64,000 nucleotides of DNA from Kofleriaceae bacterium (GTDB lineage: Bacteria > Myxococcota_A > Polyangia > Haliangiales > Haliangiaceae). Position numbers and translations under genes: made by a program. The DNA is taken from assembly GCA_015075455.1 (NCBI GenBank), contig JABTUH010000016.1:128001-192000 (forward strand). Direction: 5' to 3'. Position 1 is the stretch's first letter. Each line of letters starts with the position of its first letter. Below, piece by piece: positions 22,302 through 26,735 of the stretch. The notes beneath the pieces are model-generated. The model searched no databases. It worked only from the letters and a program-made list of their open reading frames with translations, and was not told the origin of the DNA.

Positions 22302-22955
22302 ATGAAGCGTAGCCACCTCGTTGCCCTCGCCGCCGTCACCCTCGCCCCGGCCGCCGCCGCCGCTCAGCCTGGCTACGGGGCGCCCCCGCCCCCGCCGCCA
22401 CCGCAGGGCTATTACTCGCAGCCGCCGACGATCCCCGGCGGCTTCCACGACCGCACCGGCCGCATGGCCCTCGGCTTCTCGCTCGGCCTGGGCGGGCTGA
22501 ACGTCGGCGGCGAGGAGGTGACCTGCCCGTCGTGCGACTACGATCCGCTCGCGGTCGAGTTCGACTTCCACATCGGCGGCATGCTGTCGCCGCGCTTCGC
22601 GCTCCTGTTCGAGGTCCAGGCCAACGGCCAGACCATCGCCGAGAACGCGTACGGCGCCGCCAGCCTGGTCCAGGCCACCGCCATGGTCGCCGGCCAGTAC
22701 TGGCTGACCCCGCAGCTCTGGGTCAAGGGCGGCATCGGCGCCGCCAGCCTGTCGTACAGCTACGACGACGGCTACGCCTCGGACAGCGAGAACATCGGCG
22801 AGGGCATGGCGGTCATGGGCGCCATCGGCTACGAGGTGCTGAGCGCGCCCACGTTCTCGATCGACCTGCAGGGCCGCATCATCTCGGGCAGCTACGACTC
22901 GTTCGACGAGAACGTCACCGCGGGCTCGATCGGCGTCGGCTTCAACTGGTACTGA
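22302..22955 (+). CDS. Outer-membrane beta-barrel protein (porin / OmpA-like barrel family), signal peptide MKRSHLVALAAVTLAPAAAAAQ.
   Basis: Intact 217-aa ORF. RBS GAGGAA 6 bp upstream. Alternating beta-strand pattern ending in aromatic ..GVGFNWY. Confidence 0.75.
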   Translation: MKRSHLVALAAVTLAPAAAAAQPGYGAPPPPPPPQGYYSQPPTIPGGFHDRTGRMALGFSLGLGGLNVGGEEVTCPSCDYDPLAVEFDFHIGGMLSPRFALLFEVQANGQTIAENAYGAASLVQATAMVAGQYWLTPQLWVKGGIGAASLSYSYDDGYASDSENIGEGMAVMGAIGYEVLSAPTFSIDLQGRIISGSYDSFDENVTAGSIGVGFNWY

Positions 22956-23052
22956 CGCGACGTCTGGGCGCCGCACGGCGACGCGGTGACGACGGCCGGC
23001 CTCGCGCCGGCCGTCGCGTTTTCGGCGCCCGCGGCCCCGCGGACCGCCCTCG

Positions 23053-23643
23053 TCACGGCGTCGCCGCGGCGATGGACGGCGCGATCGGGTCGGGCACGCG
23101 GTTCTTGACCGGCGGGATCGACCGCAGGTAGGCGAACATCGCGCGCAGGTCGTCGTCGGTCAGCGTGGCGATCAGCTCGGCCGGCATCGGCGGCAGGAGC
23201 GGCCGGCCCTTGCCCATGTGGCGCGCGTTGCGGATCGTGTCGATGAAGGTCTGGGCGTCCCACGTGCCGAGACCGGTCTCCGGGTCCGGCGTCAGGTTGG
23301 CGGTGAAGCTCACGCCCCACGGCCCGCTCCACGCCGTCATGGTGTCGGTCGTCGACACGTTCCACGGCCCCTGCGCGGCAGGGGGCGGCGGGACCACGAC
23401 GTCCTGCGGATGCCCGGCGAGGAGGTGGGCCTCGTCGCGCTCGGGGCCGTTCGGCCCCAGCTTCATCGGCGTGTGGCAGTCGTTGCACAGCGCGGCGGTG
23501 ACGAGGTACTTGCCGCGCGCCACGGGATCGTCGGCGGCCGGCGCCGGCTCGCGCGAGCCGCAGGCGGCCAGCGCGCCGGCGGCCAGCGCGAGCGCGGCGC
23601 CGAGGTAGCGGGGGGAGGGGATCGAGGCAAGACGGATCGTCAT
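23053..23643 (-). CDS. c-type cytochrome (CNDCH haem-binding motif), secreted/lipoprotein-like N-terminus.
   Basis: Intact ORF MTIRLASIPSPRYLGAALALAAGALAACG...GKYLVTAALCNDCHTP..., AGGAG RBS upstream. Confidence 0.75.
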   Translation of the reverse strand: MTIRLASIPSPRYLGAALALAAGALAACGSREPAPAADDPVARGKYLVTAALCNDCHTPMKLGPNGPERDEAHLLAGHPQDVVVPPPPAAQGPWNVSTTDTMTAWSGPWGVSFTANLTPDPETGLGTWDAQTFIDTIRNARHMGKGRPLLPPMPAELIATLTDDDLRAMFAYLRSIPPVKNRVPDPIAPSIAAATP

Positions 23644-23704
23644 CTGGGTCTCCTGGTTGGCGGGCGAGCGTTGCGAGGGCGGTGGTCCAGCGCGCGGGCG
23701 CCGG

Positions 23705-24764: not shown

Positions 24765-24846
24765 GCGCCCACCATGCCCACGATCGCGTCGCCGCGTTGC
24801 TAAGGGTTCGCTGTGCCTTCGCTAAATGTTCCCTAAGCGGAACCGA

Positions 24847-26205
24847 TCAGTCGCGCTCGACCAGCTCGAGCGGGCGCACGACGCTGAGGACGAAGCGCCC
24901 GCGGCCGGCCGGGATCATCCGGATCTCCTGGCACTTCTCCTCCAGGCGCTTGCGGAGGAGGATGAGCCGGCTCTCGAGGTTGTCGCGCAGCTCCGGCAGC
25001 CCGAGCCACGGGTCGAGGCGCAGCTCGCGGTTCGAGAACTGGGTGCGGCCGTCGCGGGTGAAGGCGTTCACCAGCTTCCACAGGATCTTGCCGGGGACGT
25101 TGCGCACCAGGTAGTCGTCGCCGACGAAGACGCAATCGTCGCCGCGGTAGAACGTGAGGCGGAGCGGCGCCGCCGCGGCCGCGGTCGCGGCCGCCGCTCC
25201 GGACGCCTCGTCCGGATCGTCGTCGTCGTCCGACAGGTGGTCGATGGCCATCGCCACCTGGGTCGCCACGATCTGCAGGAACGCCTCGTGCCAGTCGTCG
25301 AACGCCAGCGGGTCCCGGCTCTCGAGCGCGAGCACGCCGTGCAGCCGGTCCGAGGCGACGAGCGGCAGCGCGAGCTGCGCCGCGGCGTCGGGGAGCCCGG
25401 GCAGCGGGATCTCGGGCCGCAGGGTGGCGCCGCCGCCGGCGGCGACCACCCGATCGCGGATGGCGCGGCCGTAGCTGAGGTCGCGGGCGCCGCCGGCGCG
25501 CGCCACCTGCCGCCCGGCGGCGACGGCGCCGATCAAGCCCTCGCCGAACGCCACCTCGGCGCCGACGCCGGTGCGGCCGTAGCCGCGGCTGGCGATGGTC
25601 ACCAGGCGGCCCCCGCCGTCGGGGACCAGCACCATGGCGTGGCCGAAGCCGAAGATCGCCTCGAACGCGTCGAGGGTGGCGTCGAGCAGCTCGTCGAGCC
25701 GGGTGGCGCGCGAGATGCGCGCCGACAGGCACTGCAGCGCGCGCAGCTCGTTGAGCGGCCCGCCCTCGGGCTCGAGGGTCGCGAGCGCGGGCGGGGCGCC
25801 GGCGAGGTAGCCCTCGACCTCCGCGAAGCGCGTCACCTCGCAGACGTCCGCCGACAGCAGCGCGAAGACCCCGGTCATGCCGGTCTGGGAGGCGATCGCC
25901 TGGATGCGCATCGCCATCGAGTCGAAGAGCGGACCGCTGGTCTCGGCCCGCAGGAACCGGAGGTCGAGCCGGAAGCACTCGTAGGTGAGCGGGTCCCAGA
26001 GCTCGACCTGCGCCCACGGATGCTCGGCGAGGTTGCGCCGCGTCTTGTTGAAGAACTGGCACGACAGCGCGACGTGTCGATCGTCGACGAAGTAGACCTG
26101 ACTCACGAAGGTCACGTTGGGCGTGCCGTCGCGCGCGCAGGTGGCGAGGGCCGACGGCAGGACACCCTGGAAGCAGCGGGCGAAGCGCGACAGCCGCGGG
26201 ATCAC
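24847..26205 (-). CDS. Fusion protein: N-terminal PNPOx-like (pyridoxamine-5'-phosphate-oxidase-family FMN-binding split-barrel) domain, a central GAF domain, and a C-terminal ~110-aa domain of unknown function.
   Basis: Intact ORF. The N-terminus [58 protein letters not shown] is paralogous to the upstream gene. GAF region [41 protein letters not shown]...[13 protein letters not shown]. Probable GTG start overlapping the upstream stop. Confidence 0.65.
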   Translation of the reverse strand: [452 protein letters not shown]

Positions 26206-26735
26206 GACGCCCCCATCGGTCGGCCGGCCCCGGGTCCCGGGGTCTGCTCGAAGACGGCGTCGAGGCGGACCTCGACCGCGGTCGCCGGCCAGGTCACGAG
26301 CCGGCGCACCACCGGCAGCGGCAGGCCGATGCCGGCGAGGCTCCCGGTGTAGCCGCCGGCCTGGGTCTCGATCGCGGCGCGCTCGTCGGCGCGCGCCGGG
26401 CGCACGGCGGTGACCACGCCCTTGAGCTGGACGGTGCGGTGGGTGGCCACCTCGCAGGCGGTGACCGCCAGCGGCGCGTCGGGGGCGAGCACCGCCAGGA
26501 GCGCGGCGCCCGCCTGGTCGGCGACGAACACCGTGAACGTCCGACGATCGGCGCCGGGCCGCAGCCCCACCGCCCGCGATACCCGCGGCCGCAGCTCGGC
26601 GTCGCGCCCGGCGGCGATGAACGACATGCCCGCGCTCAGGAACGCGACCAGGTCCGCGGTCAGCTCGTGCACCCTGCCCCATCCTACCGGATCTCGCCGG
26701 CGGCGGGCCCGGGCGGCGCGGAGCGCGGCGGCCAC
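26202..26735 (-). CDS. PNPOx-like pyridoxamine-5'-phosphate-oxidase-family FMN-binding protein (split-barrel fold).
   Basis: Intact 177-aa ORF: [36 protein letters not shown]...[19 protein letters not shown]...[17 protein letters not shown]. Confidence 0.65.

Follow-up and report, generated by a model that had tools for sequence, protein, structure and literature searches.

A putative one-component regulator pair with an OmpR-type output domain and a conserved TTAGG repeat box beside c-type cytochrome genes of a Kofleriaceae bacterium

The four genes considered here (g1 to g4) are located on the minus strand of a 64,000-nt window (positions 128,001–192,000 of contig JABTUH010000016.1) from a Kofleriaceae bacterium of the Myxococcota. 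The first two, g1 (26202..26672, ~156 aa) and g2 (24847..26205, 452 aa), appear to encode a one-component regulator (g2) and its partner (g1), which would bind DNA via an OmpR-type winged helix and control an adjacent operon for iron proteins through a tandem-repeat element termed TTAGG box (24796..24839); this reading is given a probability of about 0.65. The adjacent genes in the window, g3 and g4, code for c-type cytochromes. New in this respect are a widespread family of one-component regulators with predicted OmpR-type output, an operator and a regulon predicted along with it, and a possible sensor composed of two split-barrel subunits. Annotation of regulators currently serves the Myxococcota, Planctomycetota and Acidobacteriota, in which the family is found, only poorly.

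The regulator g2 and its partner g1

The C-terminal domain of g2 (residues 345–452; 24850..25173, minus strand) is strongly conserved in the family alignments (A1, A3). Modelled alone, it reached a predicted local distance difference test score (pLDDT) of 93 and a predicted template modelling score (pTM) of 0.86, with the modelled elements ordered as three strands, helix, strand, two helices, beta-hairpin and final strand. A Foldseek search against PDB listed BaeR, SaeR and the AdeR-DNA complex on top (template modelling score up to 0.62, E about 1e-2). The model has the OmpR/PhoB fold, i.e., an N-terminal beta-sheet, alpha1, alpha2, the recognition helix alpha3 and a C-terminal beta-hairpin wing, and identifies the domain as a divergent winged helix with putative DNA-binding function. 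The initial annotation had named a winged helix as one fold to look for in this domain, and structure prediction indeed revealed one.

A profile search across 1.84 billion representative proteins retrieved 1089 clusters with this domain. Apart from the architecture found in g2, it is joined to GAF alone (P0157), to PNPOx alone (P0196), to PAS (P0203), and in P0234 to a STAND NTPase with TPR repeats. Because it is attached to several different sensor types, it is read as an output module, and the architectures indicate that it behaves like a mobile output domain of one-component regulators. The predicted recognition helix is almost unchanged among these four proteins and, being nearly identical, may direct all of them to similar DNA sites. 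If the modelled fold is correct, recognition of this hidden OmpR-type domain would provide over 1000 protein clusters of several architectures with a role.

The N-terminal part of g2 comprises two domains that are connected to the winged helix by an acidic linker. Residues 1–130 (25816..26205, minus strand) represent a PNPOx-like split barrel (PF01243, alignment A1, Foldseek), of which residues 18–80 match PNPOx_N (PF01243) with 33.2 bits against a cutoff of 28.1. Residues ~150–327 (25225..25758, minus strand) form a GAF domain (AlphaFold2 model, Foldseek), of which residues 168–323 match GAF_2 (58 bits), GAF_3 (48.7) and GAF (46.9). The last ~110 aa have no match in Pfam or NCBIfam. The previously described fusion of PNPOx, GAF and a C-terminal domain is borne out by these matches, with 452 instead of 453 aa as length of the protein. 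No match to Response_reg and no receiver (REC) domain were found in g2, its N-terminal part being PNPOx-like and GAF.

Foldseek related the GAF domain of g2 to those of PtsP, Lcd1 and fRMsr, and the split barrel to 3in6 (a flavin mononucleotide (FMN)-binding protein), HupZ and MSMEG_3380; the profile of the barrel yielded weak matches to HutZ, 3in6 and HupZ. Among solved structures, the barrel is as close to haem binders (HutZ/HupZ) as to proteins that bind FMN or, in the case of the reductase MSMEG_3380, F420, and the sensing of flavin, as initially proposed, is not established. An NKTRRN-type motif is invariant in the split barrel of g2 and missing from g1. Alignment A1, read against the Pfam pattern, would in our reading place this motif where PNPOx-like proteins bind the phosphate of their cofactor. 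Cysteines C11, C23 and C49 of g2 are conserved in the family alignment. An insertion in the GAF domain (LRYGRAIRxRV...; residues ~239–269, window ~25399..25491) ranks with the best-conserved parts of the family alignment, yet was modelled with very low confidence (pLDDT 37–46); it might cover the ligand as a lid or serve as a contact to a partner.

Translation of g1 starts most likely at GTG 26672, preceded by AGGA 9 nt upstream and supported by the alignment of the g1 family (A4), rather than at GTG 26735 as annotated before; the longer open reading frame (ORF) from the latter codon is possible and receives no support from the alignment. The window g1 has no Pfam match at E<=1. Homologues elsewhere score 35.4 and 31.4 bits with PNPOx_N (others only 26 and 21.9) and for this reason g1 is assigned to the same broad superfamily as the PNPOx_N proteins. 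The close paralogy of the two barrels that had been assumed was rejected: BLASTP of g1 against the N-terminal domain of g2 finds nothing, and when their family profiles are compared with hhalign, the probability is 6.9 % (E 0.005) over 81 columns in the canonical split-barrel register. At most, they appear to share the split-barrel superfamily.

For comparison, 80 loci were fetched, 78 of which include DNA upstream of g2, and a g1 homologue is located directly upstream of g2 in all 78. In 70 of these, the two genes share a 4-nt stop/start overlap (ATGA 41, GTGA 28, TTGA 1). The overlap noted before in the window is GTGA (g1 stop TGA, 26204..26202; g2 start GTG, 26205..26203). Overlaps of this kind are a typical sign of translational coupling. 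Furthermore, both proteins occur as fusions in some lineages: P0142 (651 aa) is composed of a g1 part (45 % identity to the window g1), a linker of ~35 residues and a full g2, and P0180, P0254 and P0270 agree with P0142 in length class and Pfam layout. Fixed adjacency, 4-nt overlap and fusions argue for a joint action of g1 and g2 as a single unit. Inspection of the sequences by eye revealed no signal peptides in g1 and g2.

The architecture of g2, initially regarded as rare, is common. A database search with g2 gave 3797 matches among 8000 candidates, and the best 120 of the 3797, cluster representatives originating from Myxococcota, Planctomycetota and Acidobacteriota, are all full length with PNPOx and GAF and 56–99 % identical; more than 120 such full-length representatives exist. 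A scan of one genome per species detected a relative in at least 404 GTDB species. In annotations, the family carries only the label 'GAF domain-containing protein' or 'adenylate cyclase', the latter being wrong.

Among known systems, the OmpR/PhoB response regulators BaeR, PhoB, AdeR and PmrA share the predicted fold of the g2 C-terminal domain. In contrast to these, g2 has its sensors fused directly and operates without receiver or phosphorylation, its sequence is too divergent for Trans_reg_C, and its predicted site of four TTAGG repeats differs in sequence. OmpR-type DNA-binding domains without a receiver are also present in the Streptomyces antibiotic regulatory proteins (SARPs; AfsR, EmbR) and in ToxR, CadC and TcpP, however, at the N-terminus instead of the C-terminus as in g2, and combined with membrane/periplasmic sensors or BTAD/NB-ARC modules rather than PNPOx and GAF. 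CodY of the Firmicutes resembles g2 as a soluble one-component regulator with GAF and C-terminal winged helix, the subtype of which is different. The proteins 3in6, HutZ/HupZ and MSMEG_3380 have the fold and Pfam family of the g2 N-terminal domain, which part of the g1 family matches as well, but they are not known to belong to a transcription factor. The literature on PNPOx-GAF or OmpR-like one-component regulators yielded no description of the g2 family or the TTAGG box, and a sensing design that combines a GAF domain with a pair of dissimilar split-barrel proteins has apparently not been described before.

The TTAGG box and its putative promoter context

The 82-nt gap between g2 and g3 harbours the TTAGG box (24796..24839, minus strand), which consists of four tandem 11-bp direct repeats (44 bp; cgcTTAGGGAA CATTTAGCGAA GGCACAGCGAA CCCTTAGCAAC) with the unit pattern TTAGGnAnnnn. 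The 64-kb window contains this pattern a single time, and none of 100 shuffles has it. The box is likewise found upstream of g3 in distant phyla; overall, its conservation extends over Myxococcota, Planctomycetota and Acidobacteriota. A position weight matrix built from 14 sites was used to scan all 80 loci with a threshold of 25 bits, yielding 58 matches above 25 bits as compared to none in the reversed-sequence control (maximum 21 bits); the box is present in ~50 of the 80 loci from three phyla. An 11-bp repeat period is that of sites bound by proteins of the OmpR/PhoB family. The box represents a concrete predicted operator of g2, with a predicted regulon, that is directly testable.

With few exceptions, the boxes are intergenic and oriented towards the gene that opens the unit adjoining g1-g2, namely g3 (22 boxes), a gene for a hemerythrin-domain protein (18), a gene of the ODP family (8) or a g4-like cytochrome gene (4). 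Three boxes are located ~310–330 nt upstream of g1, before a short hemerythrin-like ORF in Kofleriaceae relatives, and three have no recognised gene within 400 nt; from the latter, those of L046 and L078 precede a larger c-type cytochrome and that of L075 a small unidentified ORF resembling a membrane protein. The target unit either precedes g1 in the same orientation, follows g2 (as in the window), diverges from g1 or converges after g2, and the box moves with the target unit in all these arrangements.

The divergent arrangement was observed in Acidobacteriota and Thermoanaerobaculia, in loci L007, L014, L032, L037, L038, L052, L054, L060 and L070 (about 6500–7450 in each), where the box-driven unit encodes an ODP-family di-iron protein with metallo-beta-lactamase fold, often followed by a g4-like cytochrome. 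The Kofleriaceae relatives L002–L005 have another TTAGG box as well as a gene for hemerythrin between the aminotransferase gene and g1 (L002:7117-7519, L003:4584-5004, L004:6729-7490, L005:7096 onward); this hemerythrin is complete in L004, whereas L002 and L003 retain a remnant of ~105 aa. The second box and the hemerythrin gene before g1 are both lost in the window and in L001, a locus 97–99 % identical to the window; the distance left between g1 and the aminotransferase gene is only 88 nt. Hemerythrin and ODP genes were looked for in the window and are absent; apparent matches were dismissed as overlapping alternative-frame ORFs mapping onto g4. The circuit may have been trimmed in the lineage of the window.

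In 39 non-redundant loci, the box is followed at a fixed distance by a conserved C-A-W-N-N-T-K element, which occupies +20..+26. Its counterpart in the window is the -10-like hexamer atggtg (24770..24775, minus strand), with 20 nt between box and hexamer, another 5 nt up to the ATG of g3, and 32 nt in total from the end of the box to this ATG. The distance between the element and the start codon varies among loci and amounts in Planctomycetota to 25–35 nt, together with a ribosome-binding site of the GGAGG type. Only 5 nt between hexamer and start are found in a Myxococcota clade comprising the window, L003, L004, L005, L036, L041, L049, L056, L059 and L066. Since the hexamer lies 5 nt before the ATG, the g3 transcript in this clade is suggested to be leaderless. 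We infer that C-A-W-N-N-T-K serves as -10 element, so that the last repeat would lie over the -35 position; a -35-like hexamer conserved at proper spacing was not detected. Two other promoter types were considered for this region and rejected: for sigma-54 (GG-N10-GC), the spacing after the box is inconsistent between loci by eye, and reading the box as an extracytoplasmic function (ECF)-type promoter (GGAAC) leaves the four phased repeats unexplained by a sigma-factor site. A scan of 22800..26900 for sigma-70 and intrinsic-terminator consensus gave nothing usable.

Regulatory mode, signal and competing readings

The geometry of box and -10 element is that of class II activation of the PhoB or SARP type, and is compatible with repression by occlusion, too. 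With the same parts, g2 could act as a repressor that binds to repeats overlapping the -35 region and blocks RNA polymerase until a signal releases it; given the distances of 20 and 32 nt from the end of the box to the -10-like element and the g3 ATG, respectively, occlusion fits as well as class II activation. Repression is nonetheless viewed as unlikely: without a conserved -35-like hexamer at proper spacing the promoter looks activator-dependent, as do PhoB and SARP promoters described in the literature, and known OmpR-type proteins with tandem direct repeats at such a position are mostly activators.

Less probable than repression is that the box is read by another factor (for instance, an alternative sigma factor or a response regulator whose gene is not linked), with g1-g2 being enzymes or haem/flavin carriers that merely adjoin the operon. 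The repeats do contain GGAAC, a sequence known from -35 elements of the ECF type, and enzymes as well as haem-degrading proteins belong to the split-barrel family. However, four phased repeats do not make a sigma-factor promoter, and wherever the genes are rearranged, the box stays with g1-g2. The fetched loci have no further regulator gene in common, and the C-terminal domain of g2, with its predicted DNA-binding fold, is exchanged between sensor modules in the manner of an output domain.

Several observations weigh against g1-g2 as the regulator acting at the TTAGG box. The OmpR-type assignment is based on structure prediction and fold search because sequence searches returned nothing useful: PF00486 (Trans_reg_C) does not match g2 at E<=1, the profile of the C-terminal domain retrieves no OmpR-type chain from the PDB sequences at E<=10, and hhalign with one genuine OmpR-family DNA-binding domain (from L018) gives 0.14 % probability. 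The Foldseek E-value for the domain is only 1e-2. At the DNA level, the predicted -10 element is weak, and 28 of the 80 loci, some of them short contigs, have no above-threshold box within 8 kb; the box could belong to a factor encoded elsewhere. In addition, the circuit may be partly decayed in the window, in view of the disrupted frame of g3 and the lack of a box before g1.

With g1-g2 as a cytoplasmic sensor-regulator, g2 would be a one-component transcription factor composed of PNPOx-like barrel, GAF and C-terminal OmpR/PhoB-type winged helix, with no receiver. The second, very divergent split barrel, g1, would be produced in fixed proportion to g2 by translational coupling and most likely binds to it. 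Split barrels are dimers that hold a cofactor at their interface, and because of this the signal is probably sensed by two paired barrels, either g1:g2 or g2:g2, with flavin, deazaflavin or haem as candidate cofactor. The winged helices of g2 would bind head-to-tail on the four 11-bp repeats without phosphorylation. From the last repeat, which would lie over the -35 position of a promoter with only a -10-like element, g2 would then probably function as a class II activator in the style of PhoB and SARPs. The unit controlled in this way would be g3-g4 in the window and, in other lineages, also a hemerythrin or an ODP di-iron protein. Since the target genes share a theme of iron, O2 and redox, our guess for the signal is O2, NO, redox or haem.

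A more specific version, put forward tentatively, has g1 and the N-terminal domain of g2 form a heterodimeric split barrel with one redox-active cofactor (flavin or haem) at the interface, the state of which is relayed through GAF and drives the OmpR-type domain without phosphorylation; the regulon would then represent an old set of genes responding to O2/NO/redox, for cytochromes c in the periplasm and di-iron proteins in the cytoplasm. If true, this would constitute a new, phylum-spanning class of one-component regulators with an operator of its own, the TTAGG box.

Organization of the locus and cytochromes g3 and g4

The ORF list confirmed the head-to-tail order of g1, g2, g3 and g4 on the minus strand, in a region with ~75 % G+C, and the short gaps reported initially are 82 nt (24765..24846) between g2 and g3 and 62 nt (23641..23702) between g3 and g4. 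The left end of the cluster is the stop of g4 at 23053; position 22955, previously taken as this end, is the end of a convergent plus-strand ORF downstream of g4. The cluster occurs far more often than by chance, given that g1 and g2 are adjacent in 78 of 78 loci and g3-g4 recur next to the pair in 30 loci, in three different arrangements. A g4 homologue is present in 51 loci. The conserved neighbourhood that the initial annotation had proposed to check was thus found.

Co-transcription of all four genes, as initially proposed, is unlikely; read-through is possible. Since g3-g4 have a conserved box and a -10-like element of their own in the 82-nt gap, the four genes probably form two units, g1-g2 and g3-g4. 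The more far-reaching proposal of one operon that constitutes a flavin/redox signalling module with periplasmic electron carriers, the C-terminal domain of g2 being an effector of a new kind, accords with co-directional genes and short gaps, the PNPOx_N match of g2 and the conserved association with cytochromes. It is nevertheless judged improbable: the C-terminal domain has a predicted OmpR/PhoB fold, the cytochromes are located upstream, downstream or convergent to g1-g2 depending on the lineage and carry their own box, and flavin binding is not established, FMN and haem binders being alike among the nearest solved relatives. Moreover, the cytochromes are exported and g1 and g2 have by inspection no signal peptides, making direct electron exchange unlikely. 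From the earlier notion of a module of regulator and cytochromes, the functional link is retained by the conservation of the neighbourhood across phyla, but it looks like transcriptional control rather than coupling of electron transfer.

Both g3 and g4 possess CxxCH motifs and N-terminal signal or lipoprotein-like sequences, in agreement with the two periplasmic haem-c proteins annotated before, except that g3 is frame-disrupted in the window. Three-frame translations of g3 (23703..24764, minus strand) showed its N-terminal part in the frame of ATG 24764 and its C-terminal part (24043..23706, stop 23705..23703) in another frame; the haem motifs CRLCH and CGGCH are in different reading frames, and the window g3 does not have two CxxCH motifs in one polypeptide. 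In L001, g3 is intact with 345 aa and both haem motifs in one ORF. As compared to L001, the window contains about seven small indels plus substitutions at ~24030..24165 with a net gain of 22 nt, between flanks that are identical; the L001 sequence across this stretch is PPRIAARSPTERAALGYLHGNCGGCH. A tandem duplication as source of the additional 22 nt was rejected, as the same imperfect 25-nt repeat is present in the window and in L001. The disruption may be genuine, making g3 a pseudogene, or may stem from a local error in the assembly.

The two halves of g3 align to opposite ends of TIGR03806, the model of the SO2930 family of dihaem cytochromes (SO2930, HNE_0200), with 80.7 bits (N-terminal half) and 60.5 bits (C-terminal half). 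The likeness to this family extends to two CxxCH motifs, while the scores are far below the cutoff of 313.3, and no full-length match above the curated cutoff was obtained. A PSCyt1 match was found as well. The literature on SO2930/TIGR03806 provided no function, SO2930 being mentioned in one paper and there only in a network list. With the box upstream of g3, the SO2930-like dihaem cytochromes, so far uncharacterised, would for the first time be placed in a regulatory context. The monohaem cytochrome g4 (23053..23640, minus strand; ATG 23640; 195 aa) contains the haem motif CNDCH, matches PF00034 with 26.5 bits, and resembles single haem domains in cytochrome subunits of quinone dehydrogenases (8hdd_B, E 6e-26). 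Its lipobox LAAC indicates that g4 is probably a lipoprotein facing the periplasm.

Upstream of g1, genes for a class I/II aminotransferase (26761..28014) and a BolA-like protein are located on the opposite strand, followed by an ORF (28399..30045) that resembles fumarate hydratase upon inspection of its translation. A scan of 22000..28500 with Rfam found no RNA family. Further away, a GC-rich tandem array (18763..18910; period 6/12/18 nt, about 8–20 copies) is located just upstream of a large plus-strand ORF starting at 19031.

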